From: a virus
Lineage: Duplodnaviria; Caudoviricetes
Length of the DNA: 64,000 nucleotides
IMG/VR virus record: IMGVR_UViG_3300027917_004314
Strand: one strand, 5' to 3'
Shown here: one piece after another, positions 1-64,000 of the stretch
How the letters are laid out: each line of letters opens with the position of its first letter
Numbering within the stretch: the first letter of the stretch is position 1
Notes under the pieces: model-generated
Told to the model about the DNA's origin: nothing
Databases searched by the model: none
What the model saw: the letters and a program-made list of their open reading frames with translations, nothing else
Position numbers and translations under genes: made by a program

Positions 1-1227
1 AGCACTGCTACTTTCTATAGCCCATCCGCACAATTTACATCTGAAGATGTTGGTCAAGGCAAAGAGCTTGATTTCCATAATACTGCTACTGATAATGAAG
101 GTAGATGGACAATCAGCGCCATTACAGACGAAAACACAGTGACAATTACCAGAGCATCCGGATTTTTCGTATCGGAAACTAATCTGAAATGGCAGTTGCT
201 GTTGCCTGGTAGTGATTCACAAAGGGTACTATTTACAACCGACCTAGCGTTGGCAGCGACACAGGGACTTAGAGTCTCGTACATTGATGAACGAGACGCC
301 GATTTCTTTGATGCTAACTGGGCAGCAGCCCTTGAGGTCCTAGAAACACAGGATATACAAATTCTTGTGCCGCTGCCAACGCAGACTTTTTCTGCAATCC
401 AGCAATCGTTTAGAGTTCATGTTGAAACAATGTCTACGACATATTATAAACGTGAACGAGTATTGCTCACGGGTGCATTAGAAGGTCTAACAGTTCAACA
501 GGTATTGGGTAACGAGCTAGCAGCACCAGAAGATATAGGTATACTAGAAGGTATCCAGGGAGATGATGCTGAAGAAGTCCTAGATGGAAACATCGAAGAC
601 CTTGCAGATTATGGTGTGGCGACTAATTTTGGCTCCACTTACAGGGTTGTATATTTCTATCCCGATGAGATTATCAGAGTCATCAATGGTACGCGCACAA
701 CAATTCCTGGTTATTACATGGCAGCAGCTGCTGGGGGTTGGTTAAATGGCGAGCCCAACATTGCAATGCCGTTAACTTTTAAGACTCTAGTAGGATTTAC
801 CATTCTTAACGATAATATATTTAAGCAAACAGAACTAGACCTTATGGGAGATGGCGGTATCACGGTTGTACAGCCAGTTACGGGTGGTGGAAGAGTATTG
901 CATGGCAAAACAACCACTCAGAGTGGAAACGCAGAAGAAGAGGAGATTTCTATTGTCTTCATTAGAGACCACATTGCAAGAACAATGCGTCGCAGTTTTC
1001 AGGCATTTATTGGCCAACCAGAAGATCCTACGCTTATACCTTCCATGACGGCAAGAGCAATTGCATTGTTGAATGCATTTGTCTCACAGAATCTGATTAC
1101 TGCTTACAGAAATCTGTCCGTATCTAGAGATGACGTAGAGCCAAGACAATACAATATAGTTCTAGAAGTACAGCCTAACTACCCAGTGAATTGGATCTTC
1201 ATTGACATCTCGGTTGGACTCTTTTAA
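1..1227 (+). CDS. Tail sheath protein (5'-partial, C-terminal domains)
   Basis: Frame 1 is open from base 1 (STATFYSPSAQF...). C-terminus HGKTTTQSG..EEEISIVFIRDHIAR...LLNAFVSQNLI...YNIVLEVQPNYPVNWIFIDISV matches the sheath C-terminal domain pattern. It directly precedes the tube genes. Confidence 0.9.
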   Translation, partial: STATFYSPSAQFTSEDVGQGKELDFHNTATDNEGRWTISAITDENTVTITRASGFFVSETNLKWQLLLPGSDSQRVLFTTDLALAATQGLRVSYIDERDADFFDANWAAALEVLETQDIQILVPLPTQTFSAIQQSFRVHVETMSTTYYKRERVLLTGALEGLTVQQVLGNELAAPEDIGILEGIQGDDAEEVLDGNIEDLADYGVATNFGSTYRVVYFYPDEIIRVINGTRTTIPGYYMAAAAGGWLNGEPNIAMPLTFKTLVGFTILNDNIFKQTELDLMGDGGITVVQPVTGGGRVLHGKTTTQSGNAEEEEISIVFIRDHIARTMRRSFQAFIGQPEDPTLIPSMTARAIALLNAFVSQNLITAYRNLSVSRDDVEPRQYNIVLEVQPNYPVNWIFIDISVGLF

Positions 1228-1249
1228 TCGGGATGATTTATAAACACAA

Positions 1250-1858
1250 ATGACTTATCCAGCCAGCGGAAGTATTCTAAATTCCAAGATCAGCAGTGGA
1301 CTCTCAACACAAATCACAATTAAGGTGGGGAGAGTCACTGTTGGTGCAATCCAACAGCTGGTGGTAAATCAGAATCGCGACATGAATTGTTGGGAAGAGA
1401 TCGGCACGGATGGAGTCGTGGAGATGCATCCAAAAGGTGCAGCACGTATAGAATTGCAAGTGACTAGAATAGTATTCGACGATCTTAGACTCCCAGAAGC
1501 ATTTGCAAGAGGATTTATAAATTTGCAGGCGCAGAGGATTCCGTTTGACATCCAACTGATTGATAGATCAAGCTCAAGCGTAAGCTCTAATGCAATTGTA
1601 CATATTTTTAATAATTGCTGGATTAGTACATATAGCCCTACGTTTAGGGCTGACAATTTTTTGATTTCAGAAAATGCCACCATATTAAGTGAGTATATCA
1701 CCTCAAATCGCGATGCCGAAAGCGCTGTGTATGGCGGCATAAGAGGAATTCCTTATGAGCGCGATAGCATAGAAAGATCTACCGATGTTAATGGACAGAG
1801 AGGAAGATTGGAGCCGACTGGTTTAGGCTCCGCAATAGGTGGAAACCTAAGAGATTAA
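1250..1858 (+). CDS. Tail tube protein, paralog 1
   Basis: About 200 aa after the sheath; TQITIKVG..TVGAIQ..., WEEIG, TRIVFD, FDIQLID, FNNCWI pattern typical of contractile tube proteins. Confidence 0.8.
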   Translation: MTYPASGSILNSKISSGLSTQITIKVGRVTVGAIQQLVVNQNRDMNCWEEIGTDGVVEMHPKGAARIELQVTRIVFDDLRLPEAFARGFINLQAQRIPFDIQLIDRSSSSVSSNAIVHIFNNCWISTYSPTFRADNFLISENATILSEYITSNRDAESAVYGGIRGIPYERDSIERSTDVNGQRGRLEPTGLGSAIGGNLRD

Positions 1859-1888
1859 TAGCCACATACTATTGGAGGTTTTAAAACG

Positions 1889-2521
1889 ATGGCATATCCT
1901 TTGACTGGCAGCACTTTAAATAGTACCATAAGTACTGGTCTATCTACCCAAATTTTAATTAAGGTAGAGAACGTGACCGTTGGTGCCATCCAGAATATTA
2001 CTGTTAATCATACTAGAGATCTGGAAAGGGTCCGAGAAGTTGGTCTTGATGGCGTACTAGAAATTGTGCCAAGGGCTCCAACACAATACGAAGCAACCGT
2101 GACTCGTATCGTATTTGACAGATTGCGCTTGCCGGAAGCCTTTGCTAGAGCATTTATTAATATTAAATCGCAGCTTCTGGCATTCGACATTGAGATTATT
2201 GACCGCACCAACGGGGATGGAGAGGGAGCAATAGTACACAGACTGTCAAACTGTTGGTTTAACAGATATAGTCCGCGATACCAAGCTGATAATTTCATCA
2301 TCCAGGAAGATGCAACTTTGTGGATTGAAGATATCAGCACAACTCTAGGAACTTCGCAGGCTAGCGCCGTAACAGGTGGTGCACGTGGTGTTCCATATGT
2401 CAAGGATAATCTTGGCAGAGAACAACAGACTGATTCTGGGGCTGGCGGAGATGCCGCTGGCGGCGGATTCAGAGGCACTATGGATGTTTCTGGTATTATT
2501 ACGGCTGCAGCTGAGGAATAA
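1889..2521 (+). CDS. Tail tube protein, paralog 2
   Basis: Clear paralog of 1250-1858 (shared GLSTQI.IKV..VTVGAIQ, TRIVFD.LRLPEAFAR.FIN, NCW, ADNF.I.E.AT); GGAGG RBS upstream. Confidence 0.8.
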   Translation: MAYPLTGSTLNSTISTGLSTQILIKVENVTVGAIQNITVNHTRDLERVREVGLDGVLEIVPRAPTQYEATVTRIVFDRLRLPEAFARAFINIKSQLLAFDIEIIDRTNGDGEGAIVHRLSNCWFNRYSPRYQADNFIIQEDATLWIEDISTTLGTSQASAVTGGARGVPYVKDNLGREQQTDSGAGGDAAGGGFRGTMDVSGIITAAAEE

Positions 2522-2662: not shown

Positions 2663-3130
2663 ATGGTAGAAATGAAACATAAAGTGTTGGGGACTGTGGG
2701 CGCCCCAAAAGAACAAGAAAAAAAGCCTGAGCTTCCGGCCATGACTGATATCGATCTCAAGTCTCTAATTGAACTTGGTTGTGTTAGAGACTCAGTTCAG
2801 ATAGGCAACTTATCATTTACTATGAGATCTTTAAATGCGGCGGAAAAATTATTGCTGGCAGATTTAACTGCGCCAGATAAAACTGATGCAGAGTTATTTG
2901 CGTTTAATGCCAAAATGCTAGCCATATCAATTGAATCAGTAAATGGTAAGCCGTTTGAATCGCTGCACCCGAGCTACGCACCAAAAATGTCAGAATCGGA
3001 AAAAACAGACATAAAGGTTGATCTTATTAGTGCAATGCAAACTCCGGCTATTGCCATGTTGCTCGAGTTTTATCAAACTATAAGTGATAGGTGTGAGGCT
3101 CAATTTACTGTCGAACAAGTAAAAAACTAG
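2663..3130 (+). CDS. Tail assembly chaperone (lambda gpG-equivalent)
   Basis: 155 aa between tube and tape measure genes; ends in slippery GTA AAA AAC TAG. Confidence 0.75.
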   Translation: MVEMKHKVLGTVGAPKEQEKKPELPAMTDIDLKSLIELGCVRDSVQIGNLSFTMRSLNAAEKLLLADLTAPDKTDAELFAFNAKMLAISIESVNGKPFESLHPSYAPKMSESEKTDIKVDLISAMQTPAIAMLLEFYQTISDRCEAQFTVEQVKN

Positions 3131-3154
3131 CAGAGGAGCCTGGGCATCGGCTCC
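3121..3154 (+). other. Programmed -1 ribosomal frameshift signal (A AAA AAC + hairpin)
   Basis: Heptamer A-AAA-AAC at 3121-3127, 7-nt spacer, stem GGAGCC(3135-3140)/GGCTCC(3149-3154). The -1 frame is open (KLAEEPGHRLRWKL) straight into ORF 3163-3546. Confidence 0.85.
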
Positions 3155-3162
3155 GCTGGAAA

Positions 3163-3546
3163 TTGTGCAAATTATTTAAGCTACCTGTAGATCACGAGAA
3201 ATTAAACACTATAAATGATGCTCAACTGGCTTGGTACCAGTTACAAGGAATGTTGGACGATAAAGATAATTTTGAGTTGTTAAGAGATGTGGCCGAACAT
3301 AATGCTATGTTCTTGAACCCTGATGGAGTAAAACAAATTAGGGAGGCACGAGACAACTCATATGAAGTTTCAGAAGAGGATTTTGATACACTGTTAACGG
3401 AAGCTTTTGGCCGCCCATTGCCAAAAGTAAGTGAAGACGATAAGAAGAGCCTCGCGGATTTAATGTGTGAAGCTCAAGGAATTGCAGATGTTAAGCCATA
3501 CTTGGACATAGAGCTAGATGAAGTAACTTTTACCCCGTTTGAATGA
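3163..3546 (+). CDS. C-terminal part of frameshifted tail chaperone (gpGT/gpT-equivalent)
   Basis: Only a TTG start with no good RBS; in the -1 frame of the upstream chaperone; immediately precedes the tape measure gene. Confidence 0.75.
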   Translation: MCKLFKLPVDHEKLNTINDAQLAWYQLQGMLDDKDNFELLRDVAEHNAMFLNPDGVKQIREARDNSYEVSEEDFDTLLTEAFGRPLPKVSEDDKKSLADLMCEAQGIADVKPYLDIELDEVTFTPFE

Positions 3547-3561
3547 GAGGTGTCATGACAT

Positions 3562-5799
3562 ATGGCCGATGAAACCCTCCTTGCTGATCCAAATATAATT
3601 GATCGCATAAATAAAACCAAAGAAGCAATTGCTGAACTTGCAGAAAAAGAGAAAAATCTGATTACCGAATTTGGTAGATTAGATGATAGGACGCGTGCGG
3701 TAACAAATCGTCTTATGGATATGCAAAAAGCCCTTCAAGATTTAATTGCTTCTTTGCCACCTTCTCAAAGGGGAATAATTAGTTTACAAAACGAAATACA
3801 GAAGTTATCCGCTGGATTTGATGATAGCACCAAATCAGTATTTGGTTTTGTTGAATCAATAGGTGGTGCAATACTAAACAATGCTAAGGAGCTTGGTAAA
3901 GTATTTGCACTTTCTGGTAAGGAAGTGCGCGGTTTTGTAGATCCCCTGGGTGAAGCAAGATTGCTCTCTAGTGAAAACACAACAGTGCTTGGCGGCCTGC
4001 AACAAGCAATGAGCAGGTTATTAGCCGCACAGCGCAGTTCAAGAGTTGCTTTTACACGATTGGGTTTAAGCATTAGAGACGCAAATCGATTTAGTGAACA
4101 GTATCCGCAATCGTTAAGGGCCATGTCAGCAGGGTTTTCTTTGTCTACGAAGAGCCTTGATGAAATGGTGAAGAAGATGAGCGGTGTGCCACCAATTTTA
4201 ACCAGCAACGAAGCAGGTTTGCGTGGGGTAAATAACCTGCAATCAGTAATGGTAAGATCTACTGCTGAACTAGCCACTACTATGGCTGCTTTTGGTAAAT
4301 CTGCCCAAGATGCAGCCGATTTTGGTGTTAGGGCATGGTTTGATTTTAACCAAACAACTAAAGAAACAACCAGATTGATGGAACTTGTGAATCAAACTGC
4401 CGTGCAAAACAATGTGGACCTTGGAAAAGCATCAGAACAAATAGCTAGGGCCAGTCAAAGTATGGGCATATTTGGTGGTAAAATTACTGCCTCTGCCAGA
4501 ATCTGGCACACTTTTATGGGTTCTCTAAGAGAATCAGGGGTTCCAATTAATGCCATTGGCAGTATGGTTGCCGATTTAACAGACAAAATGGCTTCTATGA
4601 CCACTCAAAACAGGGCTTTTATCGGTTTAATGAGCGGAATGGCTCGCGGTAGAACTGCTCTTGGCGGTGCTCTACAAATGGAAGTAAATATGAGAACGCC
4701 AGGTGGTCTTGAAAAGAATTTAGAGGCCATGACTAGTACGTTATCTAGATTTGGCGGCGGCCGCGTAATTACTTTAGAACAAGCAGCTAGAAGCCCTCAG
4801 CTTGAGATGCAGTTTGTTTTGCAGAGACAAATGCTTGGCAAACTGACTGGTATCACTACCGCTGAACAACAAAATAGAATCTTAGAAACGTTGGAAAAAG
4901 TACAGCGGGGTGGAATTTCACGTATACAAGGATCTAGAGAAATTCAATCTGCCATGGAGAAAGGTAAAAACATACAGGAAAGAACACTTACTGCGATGGA
5001 AAGGATTGATTTGACCGTTAGGGGGATAATAGGCGGCAAACTAGATAAGCTTATCAGTGCTGTTAATGAAACTTTTACGGGTGAAGGTGTTGGTGAAAGA
5101 GGCAGAATACAAGAGCGCGGTGGCTTACAAACATTACAAAGAGCAATGACGATGGAACCTGGTCCTGCTAGACAAAACCTGCTGCGTGCTGGATTACAAG
5201 GTATATTTTCACAACTAAGAAACATAGGGCCGAATGTGCGTAGGGCCGATGTACCAGCACCAGGTGAGGCCACAGTGTCAGAAATTTTTAGAGATGTGCG
5301 CAGAGCCGCCGAAGCTGGGCGTTATGGTGGCGCTCCGCCAGAAATGCCGGTACCAAGAGAAGTTACTAGGCCACCAACATCTCCATTTTTGGCGGCTACG
5401 CCAGGAAGAAGGGGAACTGCAGCACTGCCTAGATTTAGAGCAATAATTCCTCCCGCTGGGCCAGAACAAAGGGTAGCACAACAAGGAAGTGTGGCCAGAA
5501 TACTGTCAGAAGCTTTGAGTCCACTAAGAAGAACGGCTGGGCCCGACATAGGGAGAATGATAGAAGCTATTGGTCCGACAAGACCTGTTGCTGCTCCACC
5601 AGAAAAAAGAACTCCAGAAGTGACACCTGCTGCAGTTACAAGAGGCGCTGGCGGAGAGTATAACATTAACGTACGGGTTAGCAGTGATGTTCCTTTAGGT
5701 CAAGCCGGTATGGACAACTTTATTGAAAAACTAGCAGATGTTATAAAAAAAGACATGGAAAGTTTTTCAATATCTTCTATACTAGGACATAGTGATTAA
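3562..5799 (+). CDS. Tape measure protein
   Basis: 745 aa, largely helical Ala/Gln/Met-rich with N-terminal coiled coil, canonical position after the chaperone pair; Pro/Arg-rich C-terminal quarter. Confidence 0.8.
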   Translation: MADETLLADPNIIDRINKTKEAIAELAEKEKNLITEFGRLDDRTRAVTNRLMDMQKALQDLIASLPPSQRGIISLQNEIQKLSAGFDDSTKSVFGFVESIGGAILNNAKELGKVFALSGKEVRGFVDPLGEARLLSSENTTVLGGLQQAMSRLLAAQRSSRVAFTRLGLSIRDANRFSEQYPQSLRAMSAGFSLSTKSLDEMVKKMSGVPPILTSNEAGLRGVNNLQSVMVRSTAELATTMAAFGKSAQDAADFGVRAWFDFNQTTKETTRLMELVNQTAVQNNVDLGKASEQIARASQSMGIFGGKITASARIWHTFMGSLRESGVPINAIGSMVADLTDKMASMTTQNRAFIGLMSGMARGRTALGGALQMEVNMRTPGGLEKNLEAMTSTLSRFGGGRVITLEQAARSPQLEMQFVLQRQMLGKLTGITTAEQQNRILETLEKVQRGGISRIQGSREIQSAMEKGKNIQERTLTAMERIDLTVRGIIGGKLDKLISAVNETFTGEGVGERGRIQERGGLQTLQRAMTMEPGPARQNLLRAGLQGIFSQLRNIGPNVRRADVPAPGEATVSEIFRDVRRAAEAGRYGGAPPEMPVPREVTRPPTSPFLAATPGRRGTAALPRFRAIIPPAGPEQRVAQQGSVARILSEALSPLRRTAGPDIGRMIEAIGPTRPVAAPPEKRTPEVTPAAVTRGAGGEYNINVRVSSDVPLGQAGMDNFIEKLADVIKKDMESFSISSILGHSD

Positions 5800-5819
5800 A
5801 TATTGGAGTGTACACAAAT

Positions 5820-6602
5820 ATGGCGAGTGAACATATCACTAGAGAAGGTAATCTGCAATCTCCAGATATAATTGCCGAAAACCCGCAGCAGCCTAAGGGT
5901 GCGCGTATTCGCCAACTTATCCGATGGCGTGTTCCGGGATTAGGATTTGTAGATATGTATATTAACCCACAAAATATGGACATTACGGAAAAGAAAGTGA
6001 TACAGAAGCAGCGTACGAAAGGTGGATATATTGTTCAGTACTGGGGAGAAGAACTGATGACAATCCGTATGTCTGGATCAACAGGAGCGTCTGGGATTGA
6101 AGGTATAAATGTTTTACGTAAAGTATATAGAGCTGAACAAGATTCTTTCTTACAAGTGGCGCAGAGCTTAGCAGACAGAGTGAACTCATACACTGCTGGT
6201 GGCAACATCGCAAATATTATTGCCCAGGGGGCTGGCCAATCAGCCAAAGATTTGTCTGGCAGTATCAGCGGCGGTCTAATCACCGGTCTATTAGGCGGTG
6301 GCTCTAGTCCATCGTTGTTGCCAACTTTGGGTTCACTAGCGGTATCTGTAGAGTTATTCTATCAGGGATGGGTGTTCAAAGGATTTTTTGAAGAGTTTAC
6401 TGTTAGTGAAAATGTAGCCAATGGGCCGGGCGTGTTTAATTATAACCTAAGTTTTACTGTCCTAGACAGAAGAGGAGTTAGAAGTAACTTTATGCCTTGG
6501 CATCGTGACCCGACAGAAAAGGACCAATCAGGTAATCCAGTTGGATATAGGAAATCTGATGCAAAATCTACTCCAATGAGTTTTGGTGATATTGAGGAAT
6601 AA
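5820..6602 (+). CDS. Tail tube initiator / baseplate-proximal tube-fold protein
   Basis: MYINPQNMDITEKK..QRTKGGYIVQYWGEEL.TIRMSG and FKGFFEEFTVSE...FNYNLSFTV resemble tube-initiator proteins. ORF track starts at 5808 GTG; ATG at 5820 follows GGAG. Confidence 0.65.
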   Translation: MASEHITREGNLQSPDIIAENPQQPKGARIRQLIRWRVPGLGFVDMYINPQNMDITEKKVIQKQRTKGGYIVQYWGEELMTIRMSGSTGASGIEGINVLRKVYRAEQDSFLQVAQSLADRVNSYTAGGNIANIIAQGAGQSAKDLSGSISGGLITGLLGGGSSPSLLPTLGSLAVSVELFYQGWVFKGFFEEFTVSENVANGPGVFNYNLSFTVLDRRGVRSNFMPWHRDPTEKDQSGNPVGYRKSDAKSTPMSFGDIEE

Positions 6603-9600
6603 TGTCTATTATTTTATCAAGTCAGGCAAATGTATCTACCGATGATGGTTTAAATATCCTTGGAGATTTTGGTAAATCTATAGGAATCCCGGGATTCCCG
6701 GAGCCACCAAATTTAAATAGCCCAGTTGCTAGCGGTTTAGAATCTTTAAAAAACGCTGCCAATGACGTATTGAATAAACTTCTTGGAAAAACAAACCAGG
6801 AGGCATGGGATTTAAATTTTGTTGAAAGTGGTAAACAAAGAATAGCAGGCGGAAATGTACAGGGAGGAAAAGTCCCGCCACTAGAAGAGGCAAATATAAG
6901 GCAGGTATATAGCCAAAGTCCGCACGTAAGCGTGATAATCAAAAAGCGTGCCTTTTCTTCTTTAAAAAATTTATACAATCCAATCTTTATGGATCCATCA
7001 GAGCAGTGGTTGTTTCGTGCCACCAAAAGACTGATTTCCAATAAGTGCGCTGAAATAGCCGATTATGAGAGGCTCACTAAGATATTGGAACTAGATGAGC
7101 TTGGCGCCAGCCCAGGTACCATTATTGCATCACTTGTGTCCAGTCTGGCAGAAAACACTGGTATTACTACAGCATTTACCTCTGCCATGCATTTGCAGAA
7201 GGCCGCATATGATAAACAACCACCAAAACTCACTACATATTTTGTTGACCACGACCTACCGGTGCTTGAAGAGCTAGGTGCCGGCAACGGCATATTTGAG
7301 ATCACCATGGTATCGGATGTCAACACCAGCTTGAGTTTAGACGGTTCAGGTGCCTGTAATTTCAATATAGAAGATCCATATCGCATATTGTTTATCACTG
7401 AGCAAGACATAGAATCTGCCCTACAGCAGACAGCTTTATCTAAATTTGTCGATGTTGTGAGCAACACTGCTTCTGCAGCACTAGAAAATGCGCAGATAAG
7501 GGATTCATTGCTCAGTAAAGCTAGAAAAGAAAGAGGTAAAAGCGAAATAAGCTTCACCGCAAACGTAGGTGGGGGGTTAGATATCGTTGCCGTCATAGAC
7601 GCCATCGGTTTTCAGATTACTCCGGATAATCTGAGTGATGTGCCTGAAACTCACGCCCTTGATACAAATGAAGAAGAGCTTTTCGAAGGTGTATACGAGT
7701 CTTTGAAAACATATCAGGCCGCAATGAAAAAGAATCTTTTGAACGGACTGAGCAATATTCTTAACTCGGGTGCTAAGATAAGAAGCCAGATGGAATATGC
7801 TCGCAAGAAAATGAGGTTATTCTATTTGGGGAAGTCTATTATACAACCTATGGACGCTGTACATATCCTCATGGATAGTGGAACCAGGCGACTTGGAGAA
7901 GGTGACAATGTTTCAATAGATAAGAACCAAAATATACTTACTGCAGAGGGACGCATCAGCCTTGCTAACGACGTATTAGGACTGGGCGATGACGCGATTA
8001 TAGATGATGATCTTCTCAAAATGGAATGGGAAAGAGAGGGTCAGCACATGCGGTTTACAGATTTCAAAAAATTGCGCATGATGCAATCTAGCGGTGAGGG
8101 CGGCACGCATGTATTCGGCGGATTAGTTAACACAGTAACTGATAGATATGATGCTAATTCTGGCAAATTTGTACTTTCAGTGGCATGCAACTCAAATATG
8201 GAATGGTTAAAAATTTCAAAGTATAATCAGCAACCATCATTGGATCAAACACAGGGCATAGTTTATGACCCGCTGACCCCGTTTGATTATGAAACGGATC
8301 CTGCTACTGGTCTTCCGACAGGGAAACCAAAACTCAGTGACGCGAATGTGATAGCTGGTACGTGTAAAAGGTATTTTGATAATGGGCCAAGAATTGGCAC
8401 TACGCTTGAAACGATAGAAGATATGGAGCAAGATGTCAGAAGGTTGGGTGGGAATGTAATTACACTATATCAACACGCACCAGGTTTGCTCTATAAGTGG
8501 AAAGAAGGCATCCAAACTGCCACATATAATCTCTCGACTGTGGATCCGCTTGACGGATCTCTAGTGGACGGCAAACAGTTAAGAAGAGATGTGGGCTTCT
8601 TCGCATCTAACACTCCGTTTGACAACCTTGATGCGGCTAATATTATCAGCCTGTTAGTTACAGGATTTCCGTATGATCCTGCAAAATTTGTGCAATCCGC
8701 GATTAATAATGGGTCGTTTAACATAGATACGACCCTGAATAGCACGAAACATTATTTTCATACCTTTTTGGACGTGCAAAGGTCCCTTAATTTTGTGCAT
8801 GGCGGTTTTGTACCATTTAAAACTCTCACCAGCAGCCCGGCCGCATTGGCAAAAGCAATAAACCTACAACAACAATTAACCGACAGATCTTCTAGACTGT
8901 CTCAATTACGCACTCAATTAGCAGCTAGTTCAGACAAAATTTCTCAACTAAAAGAAATGAAGCAGGCAGACCAGCGACTTATGGATGCTTTAGATAAGAA
9001 ATTTGGTGAAACTAGTAGAACTTTGGATGAACTTGAAAATGAAATTATGGGCTTTAAGGAAAGTGCCGAATGGCTAAAGGGCGGCGTACTAGAGGTGGCC
9101 GGCAACGATATTTCATTTGATTTAACTGGCGGCGCAGACAATTTTAAGTTGTTTTCTGATAGACTTACACATGCGTCCTTGAGAAGGAGAGAGCAAATAG
9201 TAAACGGCCGGGACACGAATTTTCTGATCGTTTCGGATGAATACGACAAAGATTACGATATACAATCCTTTATATTGAAACTAAAAGAGCAGGCTCCAAG
9301 CTTTTGGAAATCTACTTATATGTCGGTATATCAAATGTGTCAAGAAGTGGCAAAGATATTGAACTTCGAGTTGTTCTGTAATAGTCAGGGTCATATTGAA
9401 TTTAGGCCACCACAATATAATAGAACTCCAGTCTCTGTATTCAATCAGATGGTTACATTAAGTAAAACATCTGGAATTAAAATTTTTCCGGATTTTCTTG
9501 CCAGTTTGTACCAAAGCAGAGAGCAAAGTCTAACTAACGACATTATTGTATTAGAGTGGGAGATACGTCTTAAAGCAGCGTTGCTTGGGAAAAAGACACT

Positions 9601-13623: not shown

Positions 13624-13632
13624 GGAGAGAAT

Positions 13633-15654: not shown

Positions 15655-15657
15655 TAC

Positions 15658-39779: not shown

Positions 39780-39783
39780 TCCC

Positions 39784-41609: not shown

Positions 41610-41618
41610 GGAGCTAAA

Positions 41619-43217: not shown

Positions 43218-43219
43218 CA

Positions 43220-46619: not shown

Positions 46620-46627
46620 AGGTATGT

Positions 46628-47560: not shown

Positions 47561-47570
47561 GGGCAAACAG

Positions 47571-49108: not shown

Positions 49109-49126
49109 AGTTGGGGGTGGCATAAA

Positions 49127-53844: not shown

Positions 53845-53887
53845 AAATGAAGAAGGTTGTTTCACAAAGTGTTAGGGAGGATTCAAA

Positions 53888-57340: not shown

Positions 57341-57343
57341 AAA

Positions 57344-58018
57344 ATGAAGATCATTATAACAGGCTCCGAAGGAATAATCGGACAGAAGCTAGTTCCATTA
57401 CTTACAGGTAATGGTCATAAAATTGTTAAGTGCGATAGGGATTTGGGGCATGATCTTTCCGATAAAAAATGCGTGGAGAGTTTTTTTGAAACACACCGTG
57501 CCGATGCCCTGATAAATCTATTCGCTCTGGATGATAAATTAACAAATAACACAAAATCTGACACGGTCTGGGACTTTTCTTTAGATTTATTCATGGAATA
57601 TATGGAAACAAATGTAGTATCGCTTTTTTCTGTGTGCCGAGAATTTGCCAAACATAATGATTCTGGGAGTATAATAAATTTTTCGTCGATTTATGGAGTA
57701 GTTTCTCCTGATTATTCGTTATATGAGTTAAACAAACATAAACATATTGGCTATTGTGTGTCTAAAGCAGCAGTTCTTCAAATGTCAAGATATTTAGCAG
57801 TTCATTTAGTGCCGTGTAGAGTAAACAGTATCGTTTGTGGGGCAATTGAAAACAAGCAAGAGTTAAAATTTGTTGAACGTTTTTCCAAGCGAGTTCCAAT
57901 TGGCAGAATGATGAGTGCCGATGAATTGGTTGGTTTGGTAGAATATCTCTGTTCTAATAAGTCATCTTATTGTACTGGCGGAGAATTTACTATTGATGGT
58001 GGATATACCATATGGTGA
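57344..58018 (+). CDS. Short-chain dehydrogenase/reductase
   Basis: IITGSEGIIG, GSIINFSSIYG, YCVSKAA, RVNSI..G, GRM, YCTG..FTIDGGYT. Confidence 0.85.
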   Translation: MKIIITGSEGIIGQKLVPLLTGNGHKIVKCDRDLGHDLSDKKCVESFFETHRADALINLFALDDKLTNNTKSDTVWDFSLDLFMEYMETNVVSLFSVCREFAKHNDSGSIINFSSIYGVVSPDYSLYELNKHKHIGYCVSKAAVLQMSRYLAVHLVPCRVNSIVCGAIENKQELKFVERFSKRVPIGRMMSADELVGLVEYLCSNKSSYCTGGEFTIDGGYTIW

Positions 58019-58022
58019 AAAA

Positions 58023-58901
58023 ATGATGAAAGTTTCCGTAGTTATTTCAGTTTGTGATAATCGAACCAATTTTTTTGAGAGATCTCTACATACGTGGTCT
58101 AATCAAACTCTACCAAAAAATGAATTCGAGTTAATTATTGTAGATGATGCCTCACGTGATGATATCAAGGATCTATGTTTTAAATTTCATGAAGAAACCG
58201 GCATGCAATTTCAATATATTAAAATAGATAGCTCTAAGTGTGACGTACCAATAACGACCTTTTTACCCATACTTACTAATAATGTGGGAATTAGAAAATC
58301 TAAAGGTGATGTTATCGTGATAACTGGACCGGAGACTTTACAGGGAAAAGGAAACTTGCTAATAGCCTCTAGCATGATTGATAGGCGAGAATGCGCATAT
58401 GGTCTGTGTTATAAATCTAACACTGAGTTTGTTGGAGAGTTGGATAAGAACTGGGATAAATATAAAGATTTACATATGTCTGGCTTACTCAGAATGAAGG
58501 GGGCTGCTGTTTCTTGTTTGACGCGTCCTCCGCATCCACCAGCATATTGGTATATAATGGCAGTAGCAAAGAAACATATAGAGCGGATTGGAGGAGTAGA
58601 TGAGGCTTTTGGCACTGGTTATTGTGCTGAAGATGATGATTTTGCAAATAGAATGCGTATGTCGGGCATAATACCCGTTTTTGAACATAAAATTATAGGT
58701 ATACATCAAGATCATTCAGCCCAAGATGCTAAAGATAAAGTACACTCAGTAAGAAACGAGGAAAGGGGAAGACGCCTTAGACAAAAAAATATAGCGCTCA
58801 TGAGAAAAAACTTACGTGAGGGAAAAATGATCGCTAATCAAGATCATGTTTGGGGAGATGAAAAAGTCATAACTTTTTCTGAAATGTGGTGTCAAAAATG
58901 A
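58023..58901 (+). CDS. GT2-like glycosyltransferase (paralog of 37405-38934 C-domain)
   Basis: FELIIVDDAS, ITGPETLQ, GGVDEAF, AEDDDFANRMR, GIHQDH (track start 57993). Confidence 0.8.
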   Translation: MMKVSVVISVCDNRTNFFERSLHTWSNQTLPKNEFELIIVDDASRDDIKDLCFKFHEETGMQFQYIKIDSSKCDVPITTFLPILTNNVGIRKSKGDVIVITGPETLQGKGNLLIASSMIDRRECAYGLCYKSNTEFVGELDKNWDKYKDLHMSGLLRMKGAAVSCLTRPPHPPAYWYIMAVAKKHIERIGGVDEAFGTGYCAEDDDFANRMRMSGIIPVFEHKIIGIHQDHSAQDAKDKVHSVRNEERGRRLRQKNIALMRKNLREGKMIANQDHVWGDEKVITFSEMWCQK

Positions 58902-59467
58902 AATTACATCTAGGGTGCGGCGCGATACTTTTAAAAGGATATATTAACGTGGATATCGATCCTAAATATTTGACAAAAGACGCACCTTTTGAAATCTTAG
59001 AACAAAACATCACTACTATTGAGAAATATTATAAACACGAATTTTGTAAAGGATCTGGCGTTTGTGTCGCCGACGTTAAAGCAGCCATCGATGATCTTCC
59101 GTTTGATGCTGAATCCTGTGACGAAGTGGTTCTTATACATGTTCTGGAACATGTCCCTAGTTATAATGTAACTAAGGTTTTAAACGAAATTAATAGAGTA
59201 CTTAAAAATAAAGGAACATTCCATTTAGGTGTGCCCGACTTAAAAGAAACTGCACGAGGCTTAATTAAAGCGAAATCTCCTGAAGAAGAAGATTGGTATA
59301 TGAGATTGATATATGGTACACAAAGAAGCGAATGGTCACATCATTATTGTGGGTACACAGAAAGAACTATTAAAAACTTGGTCTTTGATCATGGGTTTGC
59401 TGGATATGAGAAATTACCCAATATTAACTTTTATCCTGCTATACATTTTAAAACTTTTAAGGAATAA
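58898..59467 (+). CDS. Class I SAM-dependent methyltransferase (type 11-like)
   Basis: MKLHLGCG, GYINVDI, LPF, HVLEH, RVLK..G; ATGA overlap. Confidence 0.85.
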   Translation: MKLHLGCGAILLKGYINVDIDPKYLTKDAPFEILEQNITTIEKYYKHEFCKGSGVCVADVKAAIDDLPFDAESCDEVVLIHVLEHVPSYNVTKVLNEINRVLKNKGTFHLGVPDLKETARGLIKAKSPEEEDWYMRLIYGTQRSEWSHHYCGYTERTIKNLVFDHGFAGYEKLPNINFYPAIHFKTFKE

Positions 59468-59578
59468 GGCAACATTCAGTGGGGTCCACAAGAAAATAAA
59501 CATTATGAAAAATAAGTTATCTGATGAAGAGTTTATAAAATTATGTTGTTTGGTATCAAAATATTCGGAGAAAAGATA

Positions 59579-60520
59579 ATGAAAATATTAGTAACTGGTG
59601 GTACTGGATTTCTTGGAAAATATGTTGTAACGGAAATCGAAAAAAGAAAATATAAAATAAAAGCAATTGGTAGTAATCATGACCTTACTCAGTTTGGTGT
59701 GGCTACAAAAATTGTTGACAGTTACCGCCCAAATGTGATAGTGCATTTGGCAGCTGCGTGTGGCGGAATCAAGGCAAACATAAATTGTCCTGGAAACTTT
59801 TTTAGAGATAATATATTAATGGGGATTAATATAATAGACGCTGCACGTTTATTAAAAGTAGAAAAAATTATATATGTTGGTACAACATGTAGTTATCCTA
59901 AAAATACTCCTGTTCCATTTCGTGAAGAAAACATATGGAGTAATTTCCCAGAAAAAACGAATGCTCCATATGGCATTGCCAAAAGGGCTTTGCTCGTTAT
60001 GTTACAAGCATATCGAAAACAATATGGATTAAATGGTATCTATCTCATACCGTCCAATCTATATGGACCTGGAGACCATTTTGATTTAGAAAATTCTCAT
60101 GTTATTCCCGCACTTATAAGAAAGTTTTATGAGGCAAAAATAAATGGGGAAAAGGCTGTGGAGATTTGGGGTACTGGTAATGCTTGTAGAGAATTTCTAT
60201 ACGCAAAAGATGCTGCCACAGGCATCGTAGATGCGATGGAAAAATATAATGGGAATGATCCTGTTAACTTAGGAACCGGCTGCGAAATTTCAATTCGCGA
60301 TTTGGTTACACTTATTAAGAAAAAAGTCGACTTTAATGGCGATATTGAATGGAATACTAAGATGCCAGATGGTCAACCCAGACGTTGCTTGGATGTATCC
60401 AAAGCTGCAGAATTTTTTGGTTTTCGTGCCTCGACCTCTCTTAGTGATGGGCTAGATGAAACAATTCAGTGGTATATTGATAATAGGGAAAATATTTTAA
60501 AAGGAGAAACAGAAGCGTGA
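59579..60520 (+). CDS. fcl: GDP-L-fucose synthase family (Fcl/WcaG; possibly ColC-type)
   Basis: ILVTGGTGFLG, HLAAACGGI..N, TCSYPK, YGIAK, PSNLYGPGDHFD..NSHVIPALIRKF, REFLY, DGQPRR.LD. Confidence 0.9.
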   Translation: MKILVTGGTGFLGKYVVTEIEKRKYKIKAIGSNHDLTQFGVATKIVDSYRPNVIVHLAAACGGIKANINCPGNFFRDNILMGINIIDAARLLKVEKIIYVGTTCSYPKNTPVPFREENIWSNFPEKTNAPYGIAKRALLVMLQAYRKQYGLNGIYLIPSNLYGPGDHFDLENSHVIPALIRKFYEAKINGEKAVEIWGTGNACREFLYAKDAATGIVDAMEKYNGNDPVNLGTGCEISIRDLVTLIKKKVDFNGDIEWNTKMPDGQPRRCLDVSKAAEFFGFRASTSLSDGLDETIQWYIDNRENILKGETEA

Positions 60521-61530
60521 AAAAGAAAACTGCATTAATAACTGGCGTTGCTGGACAGGCTGGAAGTTATATGGCTGAGTTTCTTTTGGAAAAAGATTAT
60601 GAGGTTGTTGGTGTAATTAGACGAAACGCAACGAGAAATTTAGGCACTGTAGCCCATTTAGAGAGCGAAATAGATATAGTAGAGGGCGATGTAACAGATA
60701 TGTCTTCTATGTTGAAGATAATACAGGATGTCCGCCCAAAAGAATTATACAATCTTGCTGCTCAATCTCATGTCCATACAAGTTTTGAACAACCCGTGGC
60801 GGCAATAAATATTAATACGCTTGGGGTAATTAATATATTAGAAACAGTTAAGGTATTAGGGTATTCTACCAGAATATATCAGGCTAGCACTTCTGAATTG
60901 TGGGGGTCTTCGCCCCCGCCCCAAAATGAAGAAACAATAATGCAACCACAATCGCCTTATGCCATAGCTAAACTGGCGGCTCATTGGTTAGTTAAACTTT
61001 ATAGAAAAGCATATAAAATGTATTGTTGCTGTGGCATAACTCACAACTTTGAAAGTCCCAGAAGAGGGCCGCTTTTTGTTACAAGAAAAATTTCGATGGG
61101 CGTCGCAAAATGTCTACAAAATTCCAAATACAAACTAAAACTGGGCAATTTAAATGCTCAAAGGGATTGGGGATATTGTCCAGATTATGTGAAGGGCTGG
61201 TGGCAAATGCTTCAACAAGAAACGCCCGATGATTTTGTTTTTGCCACAAACGAAATGCATTCCGTAAAAGAGTTTTGTGAAATAGCGTTTTCACACGTAG
61301 GTTTGAACTGGGAAGATTATGTAGAAGTAGATAGATTTCTTCGGAGACCAGCAGAAGTAGAGGCTTTGTGTGGCGACTATTCTAAAGCTAAAGAAATTTT
61401 AGGTTGGGAACCTAAAATAAAATTTGAGGAACTGGTTAAAATTATGGTTGAACATGATTGTAAACTTTTAGGAGTATATCCAGATGCGAGTGATAAACAC
61501 GACTGCGAAACTGAACCTATGTTTGAATAA
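60517..61530 (+). CDS. gmd: GDP-mannose 4,6-dehydratase
   Basis: ALITGVAGQAGSY, YNLAAQSHV..SFEQP, YQASTSE, SPYAIAK, ESPRRG..FVTRKI, LGNLNAQRDWG. Confidence 0.95.
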   Translation: MKKKTALITGVAGQAGSYMAEFLLEKDYEVVGVIRRNATRNLGTVAHLESEIDIVEGDVTDMSSMLKIIQDVRPKELYNLAAQSHVHTSFEQPVAAININTLGVINILETVKVLGYSTRIYQASTSELWGSSPPPQNEETIMQPQSPYAIAKLAAHWLVKLYRKAYKMYCCCGITHNFESPRRGPLFVTRKISMGVAKCLQNSKYKLKLGNLNAQRDWGYCPDYVKGWWQMLQQETPDDFVFATNEMHSVKEFCEIAFSHVGLNWEDYVEVDRFLRRPAEVEALCGDYSKAKEILGWEPKIKFEELVKIMVEHDCKLLGVYPDASDKHDCETEPMFE

Positions 61531-61786
61531 AAAATTAAAATTCCACCCAGATTATATAAAGTGGTTAAGTACCTGGGACTCAAATATTACTAGAAGTCCA
61601 ACATTTATAATTCATGATTTTTGCTTTTCAGATAAGCATAAAGCATTTTGGCTCAGGTTGTATTGCCAAGGACGTACGAAAGATTTGGAATATTGGATTA
61701 CGCCGGACAATAAAATGTATATATTGCCGGGAGTAACTACATTTTTAAGAAATTATGATGGTAAAGTATTTATAAATACAGAGTAA
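61484..61786 (+). CDS. Small hypothetical protein (start uncertain, possibly TTG 61523)
   Basis: Fills the gap after gmd; distant similarity to the next ORF. Confidence 0.5.
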   Translation: MRVINTTAKLNLCLNKKLKFHPDYIKWLSTWDSNITRSPTFIIHDFCFSDKHKAFWLRLYCQGRTKDLEYWITPDNKMYILPGVTTFLRNYDGKVFINTE

Positions 61787-61790
61787 AGGA

Positions 61791-62054
61791 ATGAAAATTC
61801 TAAATACTGATAAATTTAAAGTAGAGATTGGGGATAAAATAGAATTAAATCACAACTATAAAAAAATTTTAAAGAATTATAAAGATACTTTTTATATTGT
61901 AAAAAATATAACATATGTTAAAGAAGAGTTGTGGTTGGAAGTTTTAGATTCCAGTGGAAAACCATGGTTTATTGATATAACACCAAACAACAGACTTTTG
62001 CCGAAAGAAAAGTTCATGAACTATAAGGGTAGAGTAATAAGGAAAATAAGGTGA
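61791..62054 (+). CDS. Small hypothetical protein
   Basis: 87 aa, AAGGA RBS; N-terminus paralogous to the next ORF. Confidence 0.6.
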   Translation: MKILNTDKFKVEIGDKIELNHNYKKILKNYKDTFYIVKNITYVKEELWLEVLDSSGKPWFIDITPNNRLLPKEKFMNYKGRVIRKIR

Positions 62055-62395
62055 AAATTGTAAATCCAAATAGATTTTTAGTACGTGTCGGTGATATGTT
62101 AGAATACAATCAAAAAGCAATAGATTATATTAATGTTTTCAAGAAAAAATTGGGGCATAAAATAATGCCTTCTGCCCCTGAACTTAATAAGCAAAATCCA
62201 ACTGTTAAAAAATATGAAAAAGGTGTGGCTAGTAATGGAGAAAAATTTATAGAATTGTGGGTTGAACACAATGATAAATATACTGGATTTTCTGGTGTTG
62301 TTTGGGGTCCAAAAACAGATGTGTGGTGCCTAGATTTAGATGGCAGCATTAATGGATGTCCAGATCCTTTGTTTAAAAGGAAAATTGTAAATTAG
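62051..62395 (+). CDS. Small hypothetical protein
   Basis: 114 aa, GTGA overlap; MKIVN..RF.V.VGD.LEYN. Confidence 0.6.
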   Translation: MKIVNPNRFLVRVGDMLEYNQKAIDYINVFKKKLGHKIMPSAPELNKQNPTVKKYEKGVASNGEKFIELWVEHNDKYTGFSGVVWGPKTDVWCLDLDGSINGCPDPLFKRKIVN

Positions 62396-62405
62396 GGGGA
62401 GATTA

Positions 62406-63206
62406 ATGTCTATTGGAATATTTGTGCCCTGTTTTAATGTGAGACCTTATATTAGAGAATCACTAGAAAGCATTTTAAAACAAACTTACAAAGATTGGGA
62501 GCTTGTTATTATAGATGATTGTTCTACAGATGGTACTTATGAAAAACTTAAAAGTTTTCGTACGTGGCTTTCTGATGATAATTTCTCCATTCATCAAAGA
62601 GAAAGTCATTGTGGCTTAATAGGTAAAGTTAAAAACGAGGCCATCTCCAAGTTTACTAGAGAGCATGAATATATATGTCATGTTGGCTCAGATGATATAA
62701 TACCAGAATATTGTTTACAAGTATGTGTAGATTATATGGATAAACATCCAGAAATAGGAGCGTGCTGTGGAAACTTTGTATGTTTTGACGACCAAGGTAA
62801 CAAATGGACTTTTCCGCATGTGGCAAACAGCGGAGACTATGATCCAAGTGTCCTTCTTCGATATATGTGTTTATTTCCCCACAGATTTTATCGTCGGTCT
62901 GTGGTAGAACAAGTTGGTGGATATTCAAATGAACTTAGTTCTGCTGTTGATTATGACCTTGCTTTAAAACTAGATGAGGTAACTCAAATACATAGAATAA
63001 AAGATCCAATTACATATTATTATCGGCAACATGCACAGCAAGTTTCTACAAGAGCGCGACCCGAACAGGATGCAAATGCTAAAAAAGCCTTAAAAGCTGC
63101 CCTTGAGAGAAGAAATATAGATGCGATTGTTAAAAATGAAAAAATGCCCTTTGAAATTAAATATATAGAAGAAGAACATTTTATATGGGGAGGCGGCGGT
63201 GAGTAG
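62406..63206 (+). CDS. GT2 family glycosyltransferase
   Basis: IFVPCFN...YIRESLESILKQTYKDWELVIIDDCSTDGT, HVGSDD, VGGY, AVDYDL, YYRQH. Confidence 0.9.
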   Translation: MSIGIFVPCFNVRPYIRESLESILKQTYKDWELVIIDDCSTDGTYEKLKSFRTWLSDDNFSIHQRESHCGLIGKVKNEAISKFTREHEYICHVGSDDIIPEYCLQVCVDYMDKHPEIGACCGNFVCFDDQGNKWTFPHVANSGDYDPSVLLRYMCLFPHRFYRRSVVEQVGGYSNELSSAVDYDLALKLDEVTQIHRIKDPITYYYRQHAQQVSTRARPEQDANAKKALKAALERRNIDAIVKNEKMPFEIKYIEEEHFIWGGGGE

Positions 63207-64000
63207 AAAGAAAAAGACGAAAATCTTAGTGTGTGGGTCGGCCCAGTTTTTGATATCAAATTTTATACGTTACATTTTGTATAGGTCACAAGATTATAAC
63301 ATTGTAAGCGTAGATAATTTAGAAAAGCCATCCGACATTAAAAGAATTTATTTTCATAAAAATCATAGGTTTTATGTTGGTGATTCATCCGATGAATATT
63401 TTATAGATAGGATATTTTATATAGAGAGGCCTAATATAATAATATGTGGCGATGAACAGCTTGATTATGAAAAATTATTAAAAACGGCGCAAAATTTAAT
63501 TAAATTTAATGTGCCTATTATTACAATATCTCCAACCGTATGTTGTGGTGAAGGAAATGATTTATATGGGATCTATAGCTCTGTAGATAAATTTATTACA
63601 ACTAATAGAGGTATGGTAATAAGGTTACCAAATAGATTTGGAATGCGACAAAGACCAAGTATGCTTGAAAAGCAAGGAGTAAATCTGGCGTATATTATGG
63701 GCTGCGTTTTAAATAAAATTTATTTTAAAGTTAATAATGTTGAGTTACCTTGGGTATATGCTGAAGATGTTGCATCTTTTCTTTGGTATTCAATAGAGAA
63801 TTATCAAAAGGGCGAGACCATTTATATGCCGCCGCTTGGATTGAAGAGTGGTAAAGATATAGTTGAAAAAGTAATTGAAATGTATAACTTAAAGTCTGTT
63901 CCACATTGCGTTGAAGAAATTCCTAATGCAAATTGTGGTAATGAAGTTTATCGTATGGTTGGATGGATTCCAGATTCACAAGATATGGAGCATGCTTTAG
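63199..64000 (+). CDS. Degenerate NDP-sugar dehydratase/epimerase-like protein (3'-partial)
   Basis: Not in the ORF track because it runs off the window. Translated by hand from GTG 63199: KILVCGSAQFLISNFIRYIL..DYNIVSVDNL, FYVGD, RLPNRFG.RQ, LPWVYAEDVA; open to 64000. Confidence 0.65.
   Translation, partial: MSRKKKTKILVCGSAQFLISNFIRYILYRSQDYNIVSVDNLEKPSDIKRIYFHKNHRFYVGDSSDEYFIDRIFYIERPNIIICGDEQLDYEKLLKTAQNLIKFNVPIITISPTVCCGEGNDLYGIYSSVDKFITTNRGMVIRLPNRFGMRQRPSMLEKQGVNLAYIMGCVLNKIYFKVNNVELPWVYAEDVASFLWYSIENYQKGETIYMPPLGLKSGKDIVEKVIEMYNLKSVPHCVEEIPNANCGNEVYRMVGWIPDSQDMEHAL

Follow-up and report, generated by a model that had tools for sequence, protein, structure and literature searches.

The 64,000-nucleotide (nt) stretch of the phage record IMGVR_UViG_3300027917_004314 (IMG/VR; Caudoviricetes), referred to here as the window, carries a contractile tail module at 1-33436, a terminator and then a glycan-synthesis island that extends on the plus strand from 33573 to about 64050. 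Judging from the sequences of the window and its relatives, this island probably constitutes a glycosylation system of the phage that works without an exporter and is linked to the distal tail, its likely acceptors being virion proteins. On balance, it also appears to have belonged to the distal-tail region since the ancestor of a large clade of huge phages (300-480 kb). The virion reading is favoured mainly because the glycosyltransferase (GT) genes hold a fixed position next to the fibre genes, which is recovered in both search directions and throughout a deep clade.

The island comprises 32 open reading frames (ORFs), namely a ribbon-helix-helix (RHH)-like ORF and 31 others, with consecutive ORFs overlapping or separated by at most 76 nt, and its roughly 30 kb account for about 7% of the phage genome. 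An earlier note on this DNA had described about 30 coupled genes lying on the same strand after one terminator, and this description holds, as a hairpin at 33458-33485 is followed by 32 coupled genes on the plus strand. Every large ORF of the window lies on this strand and there are no tRNA genes. The GT4 gene of the window is carried on a contig of 460,921 bp, corresponding to a phage of about 461 kb. A megablast search of 20 kb (30000-50000) against GenBank phages returned no match.

A GT4 profile scan of IMG/VR recovered 58 loci, 54 of which had enough upstream sequence, and homologues of the fibre-region proteins of 2270 and/or 957 amino acids (aa) were found directly 5' of GT4 and on the same strand in 51 of these 54. 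The three exceptions to this order are the weakest GT4 matches. The reverse profile scan, performed with the 957-aa fibre protein, gave 79 loci; 67 of these extended far enough downstream, and in 62 of the 67 GT4 came after the fibre protein, at a median distance of 839 nt. Of the five reverse exceptions, L090 and L094 have further fibre genes, together with a GT8-like gene, behind the fibre homologue; on the contig of L094 a GT4 follows about 10 kb further on (locus L034), and the contig of L090 ends first. Overall, the linkage is observed in about 95% of loci and reaches down to about 30% identity. The co-occurrence of tail block and island in related large-phage contigs, for which the earlier note had suggested a survey, is therefore borne out by both counts. 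When viral contigs were scanned with one protein at a time, neither the last fibre gene nor the intein-bearing GT4 gave a match, whereas the alignment-based scans succeeded.

Among the closer relatives, G001, G002 and L009/G003 share the tail module at 38-72% amino-acid identity, and in each of them a double GT4 follows the fibre genes. In G002, a genome of 318 kb that is 79% complete, the order is tail, a 14-kb island, a tubulin gene (78% identical) and a helicase gene (67% identical). The core shared by the window and G002 consists of the double GT4, a methyltransferase, a CgeB-like GT, a radical-SAM/SPASM enzyme, GT2s, a GDP-fucose-synthase (Fcl)-like SDR, GDP-mannose 4,6-dehydratase (GMD) and another SDR. 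With respect to G002, the window has a specific addition of about 17 kb (38934-57340), which brings its island to 30 kb versus 14 kb, so that a conserved core is combined with a variable part. Nevertheless, the GT8-like gene, the GT2 at 39784, the GT47 and the ORF at 45888, all within this addition, recur at the same place in other close relatives. Public data contain about 90 sequence clusters of the double GT4, many of them on contigs of 250-460 kb, and three further contexts show the same layout with other accessory genes, including sulfotransferases, FdtA, GT47 and an intein-bearing GMD. G002 and six distant loci, whose GT4s are 30-40% identical, repeat the order of fibre, GT genes, tubulin and helicase. 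The 56 ORFs downstream of GT4 in these six loci were scanned for families, which yielded GT2 (15), GT1 (9), CgeB-like (6), epimerase/dehydratase SDR (3), tubulin (3) and UvsW-like helicase (3), with no exporter family among the best 25.

With regard to membrane machinery, a Kyte-Doolittle scan (19 residues, threshold of at least 1.6), which is a crude predictor and not TMHMM, found no segment at or above the threshold in the island ORFs, and only four tail ORFs have them. The PGT, Wzx, Wzy, ABC-2 and GtrA/Gtr families have no Pfam or NCBIfam match in the window. The hallmark initiating transferase of O-antigen and capsule loci, of the WbaP/Bac_transf or WecA type, is likewise absent from the family matches of the window; another feature of such loci, the clustering of nucleotide-diphosphate (NDP)-sugar genes with several GTs, is present. 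The components of gtrABC-type cassettes (the GtrA flippase, GtrB and a membrane Gtr(type)) were not found in the island, which contains neither membrane proteins nor matching families. In G002, Bac_transf (PF02397) is also absent, with 10 of 14 control genomes giving a match, and no ORF has the shape of Wzx, Wzy or an ABC-2 permease; polytopic ORFs are limited in this genome to M50 peptidases and an EamA-type transporter located about 130 kb from the island. Furthermore, in 57 related loci, the 10 kb that follow GT4 are free of polytopic membrane ORFs. The absence of a Wzx/Wzy/ABC exporter, an initiating transferase and a membrane GT from the island, as reported in the earlier note, thus stands in both the hydropathy scan and the family searches, and no export gene lies next to it.

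The island ends about 50 nt past the window, as seen on contig L002, which is identical over the last island genes. Immediately 3' of it, a TubZ/PhuZ-like tubulin gene and then a UvsW-like helicase gene follow (L002 4660-8235, about 140 nt beyond the window end). The flanks are thereby phage and not host, on a contig of about 461 kb. Since the flanks are phage and no exporter was found in the window or in G002, the two objections foreseen in the earlier note, a host flank and adjacent exporters, do not apply. A host chromosome or an extracellular contractile injection system was rejected as the source on the basis of flanks and genome content, which are those of a phage (tubulin, UvsW, RtcB, Ro60, sheath, contigs of 300-480 kb). 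The 'provirus' label of G002 in IMG/VR was set aside on the same grounds, both of its flanks and its content being phage.

The junction between fibre genes and island contains the following elements:

33458-33492, plus strand: intrinsic terminator closing the tail operon (hairpin 33458-33485, 12-bp stem and T-run)
33518-33530, plus strand: promoter- or operator-like motif AAATCTATTAATA, a copy of the motif with core TCTATCAATA, between the terminator and the RHH gene
33573-33794, plus strand: 73-aa RHH-like ORF, the island's first gene, recognised by sequence pattern and not by a family match

The hairpin is the only strong terminator within 24-44 kb, and equivalent hairpins are present in G001, G002 and L009. 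The core TCTATCAATA occurs in G002 as an exact 10-mer seven times versus 0.8 expected, mostly in intergenic regions and in sense orientation to the downstream gene, with one copy 35 nt 5' of the sheath gene and another 5' of the island. This pairing of sheath and island is repeated in G001, and the pattern is likewise seen in L026 and L027. The looser form CTAYYAATA is found 25 times in G002 versus 8.2 expected, with 15 copies in the intergenic 13% of the genome. Counts of sigma-70-type promoters were at chance level. The sites of the promoter-like motif are:

TCTAYYAATA: G002 302594, 267939, 55186 and 52993; G001 8094 and 46478; window 33518-33530

The motif seemingly marks a promoter class that is common to the tail, the island and a possible supply of 3'-phosphoadenosine 5'-phosphosulfate (PAPS). 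Two G002 operons bear the same motif, one with an adenosine 5'-phosphosulfate (APS) kinase (52292-52840; PF01583, 2.8e-62) and the other with a thioredoxin and a DHH phosphoesterase (53923-55162; L012). Together they may provide phage PAPS and remove 3'-phosphoadenosine 5'-phosphate (pAp) for the island sulfotransferases.

The RHH ORF (62-73 aa; RKQINIRLE..ELY.FL..Y.K.NYKTVT..RE.IA.LY), which the earlier note had omitted from the head of the island, is found 5' of GT4 in all six genomes compared and is a candidate regulator of the island. Free-standing LAGLIDADG homing-endonuclease genes are located between the fibre genes and the island in L026 (5293-6060 and 8893-9768), L027 (6014-6775) and L009 (about 9140-10000), which makes this junction an apparent hotspot of mobile elements.

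The island ORFs were assigned to families with Pfam, NCBIfam and Atlas searches, and the GT genes, together with the intein, are:

33795-37400, plus strand: double GT4, 1201 aa (PF00534, 1.5e-38; PF13439)
34662-35981, plus strand: LAGLIDADG intein within the first GT4 domain (PF14528, PF13403, PF14890; Hint, Intein_splicing)
from 37405, plus strand: GT2 (Pfam)
from 38934, plus strand: GT8-like GT-A (Atlas score 0.98 with viral GT8 clusters)
from 39784, plus strand: GT2 (Pfam)
from 40671, plus strand: GT47/RXYLT1-like, in the group 37405-41609 (Pfam; weak exostosin match in PDB)
from 46628, plus strand: GT2 (Pfam)
48389-49108, plus strand: GT29-like, 239 aa (PF00777, 4e-8; ST6Gal1, 7.5e-5 in PDB)
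from 49717, plus strand: CgeB-like GT (Pfam)
from 50766, plus strand: GT2_5-like, weak (Pfam)
from 57993, plus strand: GT2 (Pfam)
from 62406, plus strand: GT2 (Pfam)

In total, there are 11 GT ORFs with 12 GT domains, consisting of one double-GT4 ORF, six of GT2 type (one of them weak) and one each of the GT8-like, GT47/RXYLT1-like, GT29-like and CgeB-like classes. The two GT4 genes listed previously among about 12 GT genes are a single fused ORF split by the intein. The additional putative GT-A enzyme was not recovered either, since the ORF at 51683 is a class-I methyltransferase and that at 45888 has no family match. The GT29-like ORF contains a eukaryote-type sialyl-motif-L region and stands beside nonulosonic-acid genes, which is unusual in a phage.

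In the first GT4 domain, the EX7E motif is split by the intein, with the junctions EGF|CLLPG...THN|CLPLLEA. The element has the features of a class 1 intein, with Cys1, a C-terminal His-Asn, a +1 Cys, Hint and LAGLIDADG domains and insertion into a conserved motif. The G002 orthologue is intein-free and its EX7E motif reads through, while G001, L009 and about 20 of the roughly 90 GT4 family clusters have the intein; in the relative L027, an intein is found in GMD. The two GT4 domains both retain the EX7E catalytic motif, as do almost all distant homologues. PDB sequence searches with the GT4, GT47-like, GT29-like and CgeB-like proteins returned generic or weak relatives only and gave no indication of the acceptor class. 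One of the GT4 relatives, PDB 7EC1, is presumably SdgB, a protein glycosyltransferase. Among cultured phages, the first GT4 domain is closest (25-27% identity) to glycosyltransferases that occur in pairs in Streptomyces phages of about 130 kb. In Streptomyces phage Blueeyedbeauty (4809-8152; L165), the pair lies beside three tRNA-Thr genes and near the portal gene, and might offer a tractable model.

The remaining island genes encode sugar-pathway enzymes, tailoring enzymes and small proteins:

from 41619, plus strand: class-I methyltransferase (Pfam)
from 42267, plus strand: radical-SAM/SPASM enzyme (Pfam; maturase-type radical-SAM matches in NCBIfam)
from 43220, plus strand: probable sulfotransferase-methyltransferase fusion, in the group 41619-44653 (Pfam; NanM-like sugar O-methyltransferase match in NCBIfam)
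from 44654, plus strand: RfbH/ColD-like pyridoxal-phosphate enzyme (NCBIfam RfbH, 4e-77)
from 45888, plus strand: ORF without family match
from 47493, plus strand: SDR epimerase (Pfam)
from 49127, plus strand: CmcI-like O-methyltransferase (Pfam)
from 51683, plus strand: class-I methyltransferase (Atlas, 0.97)
from 52468, plus strand: B12-binding radical-SAM enzyme, in the group 49127-53844 (Pfam, NCBIfam)
from 53888, plus strand: fusion of methyltransferase and CMP-sugar cytidylyltransferase (KdsB/PseF-like, NCBIfam)
from 55317, plus strand: PseC/LegC-like aminotransferase (NCBIfam PseC, 1e-56)
from 56501, plus strand: NeuB-like synthase (NCBIfam NeuB, 5.6e-65)
from 57344, plus strand: PtmA-like SDR, in the group 53888-58018 (FlagModPtmA, 3e-18)
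from 58886, plus strand: methyltransferase (Pfam)
from 59543, plus strand: GDP-fucose-synthase-like SDR (NCBIfam Fcl, 1.6e-87)
from 60517, plus strand: GMD (Pfam)
61484-62395, plus strand: three small ORFs
63199 to about 64050, plus strand: SDR-like (Pfam; end taken from the identical contig L002)

NDP-sugar pathways and tailoring enzymes, which the earlier note had listed, are thus matched at the level of families (GMD, Fcl-like, RfbH-like, NeuB-like, CMP-transferase, methyl- and sulfotransferase, radical-SAM), with five or six methyltransferases. The combination of GMD, Fcl-like and RfbH/ColD-like enzymes would point to a 6-deoxy- or 3,6-dideoxyhexose. The nonulosonic-acid set is partial: an aminotransferase, a synthase, a CMP-transferase and a PtmA-like SDR are recognised, with weak matches only for a LegB-like SDR, and Pfam and NCBIfam recognised no N-acetyltransferase, NeuC/PseG-type hydrolase or PseB/LegB-grade dehydratase in the window. 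A Maf-type transferase was not detected. As all NCBIfam scores fall below the equivalog cut-offs, the exact sugars cannot be named. The sulfotransferase resemblance of the product of 43220 (Atlas 0.84, structural TM score 0.77) is a lead only. Of the small ORFs, the two that adjoin each other at 61791-62395, with GMD on one side and the last GT2 on the other, encode 87 and 114 aa; they are paralogues that resemble one another at the N-terminus and match no family.

The tail module that precedes the island is organised as follows:

1-1227, plus strand: tail sheath, C-terminal 408 aa, the gene beginning upstream of the window (phrog_279, 3.5e-20)
1250-1858 and 1889-2521, plus strand: two paralogous tail-tube-like virion proteins (phrog_985; position as phage G gp179/180)
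2663-17283, plus strand: inner tail and baseplate genes (synteny with G001 and G002 at 38-67% identity)
2663 and 3163, plus strand: putative chaperones (function from position)
from 5808, plus strand: tube-initiator-like protein (PF23980, weak, below the Pfam cut-off)
from 6602, plus strand: 1587-aa protein (function from position)
13633-15654, plus strand: 673-aa protein with four hydrophobic segments (hydropathy scan; function from position)
17291-17728, plus strand: sheath-initiator-like protein (PF10934, 2.6e-4, weak, below the Pfam cut-off)
17732-20971, plus strand: Baseplate J wedge protein (PF04865 Baseplate_J, 4e-25)
20971-33436, plus strand: outer baseplate/fibre proteins of 2270, 957, 537 and 372 aa (Pfam)

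The contractile nature of this block, as claimed previously, is clear; its completeness is not, the 5' end being cut within the sheath gene by the window edge. The sheath is 72% identical to the 853-aa sheath ORF of G002. The gene order parallels that of gp178-189 of Bacillus phage G, the nearest cultured relative, and the closest cultured match of Baseplate J is phage G gp188, with 28% identity. An exact-product look-up of the tube gene returned no record. The 673-aa protein has four strongly hydrophobic segments within residues 58-202 that are kept in the G002 orthologue, and it is a candidate membrane-inserting ejection component. With regard to the fibre region, the 2270-aa protein contains Laminin_G_3, the 957-aa protein dockerin-like Ca loops and the 537-aa protein a PKD-like region, and the 372-aa protein is Gly-rich.

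Within the proposed mechanism, the tail operon would terminate at the hairpin, and a promoter of the same sequence class as that of the tail sheath would drive the RHH gene and about 31 translationally coupled genes, presumably with late co-expression. Soluble enzymes would then supply activated sugars, such as a GDP-6-deoxy- or 3,6-dideoxyhexose, a CMP-nonulosonic acid and possibly others, from which the roughly 12 soluble GT domains would build a glycan, with the clade-conserved double GT4 acting first, and methyl-, sulfo- and radical-SAM enzymes would tailor it. The likeliest acceptors would be the outer baseplate/fibre proteins encoded just upstream, which would receive the glycan in the cytoplasm, either while the tail is being assembled or beforehand. 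The island of the window may represent an expanded 30-kb form of a 5-14 kb core and could diversify the surface chemistry of the particle, for instance for shielding, stability or adhesion.

A possible acceptor site was considered in the tripeptide D-[G/A/S]-Y, which occurs 26 times versus 3.2 expected in three fibre ORFs (window 20971-32300) and 126 times versus 40 expected genome-wide in G002. The G002 regions noted for it are 216-231, 270-287 and 312-318 kb. These sites are mostly kept between orthologues, including a tandem DGYDGYDGY. Since some copies fall within dockerin-like Ca-binding loops, the tripeptide may be structural and not a modification site. It is rather doubtful, though conceivable, that GT4 initiates on the baseplate/fibre proteins, possibly at D-[G/A/S]-Y (Tyr O-glycosylation or sulfation), and that lineage-specific cassettes extend the product to methylated, sulfated and nonulosonic-acid-capped chains. 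If so, protein glycosylation in the whole clade would follow a new, exporter-free scheme devoted to the distal tail, with a sequon of its own that is likewise new and a hypervariable locus that sets the 'serotype' of the particle.

Several observations weigh against virion proteins as the acceptor. The nearest solved relatives of GT4 found by PDB sequence search include PglA, TarM and WaaG, which have lipid-linked or wall-polymer substrates, as well as WbnH, and none of the island enzymes is a demonstrated relative of a proven virion glycosyltransferase. GT4 and fibre-protein identities correlate weakly across loci (rho 0.24-0.37), and no claim of co-evolution is therefore made. In G002, the promoter-like motif also stands 5' of the non-structural thioredoxin-DHH, APS-kinase and HNH genes, so that it does not prove late timing. 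The genome-wide absence of exporters was assessed in G002, a relative, and not in the window's own genome, and the marine-sediment metagenomes in which the window sequence is present are DNA runs only. Moreover, GTs of O-antigen synthesis act on lipid-linked glycans, are soluble and rely on host initiation and export. Solubility alone does not discriminate, because GTs for lipid-linked glycans are also soluble. The earlier note had argued from soluble enzymes to glycans on virion proteins; the island is indeed soluble by hydropathy, exporter-free, phage-flanked and tail-linked, but that step cannot be taken from solubility by itself.

The principal rival, tentative but to be taken seriously, is that the soluble enzymes remodel the host envelope by building or modifying a lipid- or wall-linked glycan (O-antigen, capsule, teichoic acid or S-layer) that the host initiates, flips and exports, leading to a block of superinfection or to a changed cell surface during a long infection. 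The hydropathy result is compatible with it, as most GTs of O-antigen and capsule loci have no membrane segments; the GT4 relatives named above speak for it too, as does TarP, a soluble prophage GT that modifies wall teichoic acid. The cassettes that vary between relatives resemble serotype loci, and jumbo-cyanophage clusters have been interpreted in this manner in the literature (PMC7824862), a further point against a virion acceptor. However, a post-fibre position kept in both directions in about 95% of loci over a deep clade would be unexpected for sporadic accessory genes. The promoter motif of the sheath operon also precedes the island, fibre and GT genes are intermixed in L034 and L090, and neither the island nor G002 yielded a phage flippase or exporter, although a new glycan of this complexity would as a rule require a matching Wzx/Wzy or ABC system.

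Two other explanations concern the target of the enzymes. It is unlikely that the function is split, with the core (GT4, CgeB-like, GT2, SDR) serving the tail and the cassette of about 17 kb at 38934-57340 acquired later for another target such as the host surface. The cassette (nonulosonic acid, GT47, GT29, sulfotransferase) is absent in G002 and varies in content between relatives, and GC content, which is 0.41-0.45 up to about 34 kb and 0.33-0.39 beyond, falls stepwise from 0.42 in the tail to 0.39 (33795-38934), 0.37 (38934-57340) and 0.35 (57340-64000); the gap between tail and island is small in G002 (0.447 versus 0.434). The cassette is nonetheless translationally coupled in the same operon, with no internal terminator or copy of the promoter motif, and its GT8-like, GT2, GT47 and 45888 genes keep their place in close relatives. 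A target that is neither virion nor envelope, namely the DNA of the phage, a peptide or small molecule, or some other phage structure inside the cell, is also unlikely. DNA hypermodification by phage GTs has been described (Pyle 2024, as cited in PMC12619734), replication-type genes (tubulin, UvsW) adjoin the island downstream, and the best NCBIfam matches of the radical-SAM/SPASM enzyme are peptide or cofactor maturases, which together with a GT2 would suggest a glycosylated peptide. Yet the 64-kb window has no hydroxymethylase, thymidylate-synthase-like or DNA-base-modification kinase gene, known systems for glycosylating DNA or peptides are far smaller than a set of 12 GT domains plus genes for nonulosonic acid, deoxyhexose, sulfation and methylation, and the conserved partner is a fibre gene and not a replication gene.

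If tail-linked virion glycosylation is the correct reading, it would be ancestral, conserved and elaborate in a large and globally distributed clade of huge phages. This would bear on host recognition by these phages, on their resistance to degradation and escape from defences in sediments, and on how 'LPS-like' (lipopolysaccharide-like) gene clusters of jumbo phages are interpreted in general. Glycoengineering would also gain a source of soluble glycosyltransferases, enzymes for sugar tailoring and an intein-gated GT4. With the fibre-GT4 gene pair, a concrete enzyme-substrate hypothesis is available that can be tested without the uncultured phage.

To our knowledge, glycosylated phage particles have been documented for few phages, with one to a few enzymes each. 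Soluble enzymes that glycosylate a protein assembly without lipid carriers are found in the nonulosonic-acid islands for flagellin (pse/leg/ptm) and in the Bacillus spore crust (cgeB, sps), and these systems share with the window the NeuB-type, PseC/LegC-type, CMP-transferase, PtmA-like SDR and CgeB-like GT families. In contrast to the flagellin islands, the window shows no detectable Maf-type transferase, and its pathway is incomplete by recognised families. Giant viruses (PBCV-1 for its capsid, Mimivirus and Megavirus for their fibrils) possess their own nucleotide-sugar pathways, many soluble GTs and methyltransferases, with which they decorate proteins in the cytoplasm. Exostosin/GT47-like and multi-domain GTs occur in both these viruses and the window, but giant viruses belong to another realm and infect another domain of hosts. 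The window adds nonulosonic-acid, sulfation and radical-SAM chemistry and the link to a contractile tail. Autonomous glycosylation in chlorovirus PBCV-1 is a precedent as cited in PMC5852040.

Jumbo cyanophages such as P-SSM2 and S-SSM6a carry sporadic LPS/capsule-type clusters that have been read as modifying the host surface in pseudolysogeny (Iyer et al. 2021, PMC7824862). Like the island, these clusters contain NDP-sugar enzymes and paralogous GT families, are polymorphic between related phages and have no exporters; unlike them, the island has a fixed post-fibre position across a deep clade and a promoter motif in common with the sheath operon. In the 385-kb Xanthomonas jumbo myovirus XacN1, which encodes phage GTs, at least two virion glycoproteins have been detected experimentally; unlike the window phage, it encodes just two GTs, and neither an island nor a link to the tail has been reported for it (PMC5852040). 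XacN1 was not among the GT4 or Baseplate J search matches in cultured phages.

A parallel in design is offered by mycobacteriophages, which use phage soluble GTs and methyltransferases in the cytoplasm without lipid carriers or exporters, as proposed here. Their few GTs draw on host sugar nucleotides, and the acceptors are C-terminal extensions of capsid and tail-tube subunits. Freeman et al., in 2023, reportedly found virion glycosylation in Che8, Corndog and Myrna. Phages of the Myrna type (cluster C) and the window phage have a distant Baseplate J relative in common, and soluble GT genes that adjoin virion structural genes are found in both settings (here in 51/54 and 62/67 loci). The tube paralogues of the window have extensions of about 55 aa that are not Ser/Thr-rich, when compared with acceptor tracts of the mycobacteriophage type. 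In comparison with mycobacteriophages, for which virion glycosylation has been reported (Freeman 2023, as cited in PMC12619734), the candidate system of the window combines 12 GT domains with whole sugar pathways and tailoring enzymes and is linked to distal fibre genes. Phage virion glycosylation and jumbo-phage GT clusters are thus already known, while the scale of the island, its nonulosonic-acid, sulfation and radical-SAM content, the clade-wide fibre-GT4 linkage, the RHH gene and motif at its head and the GT4 intein are new.

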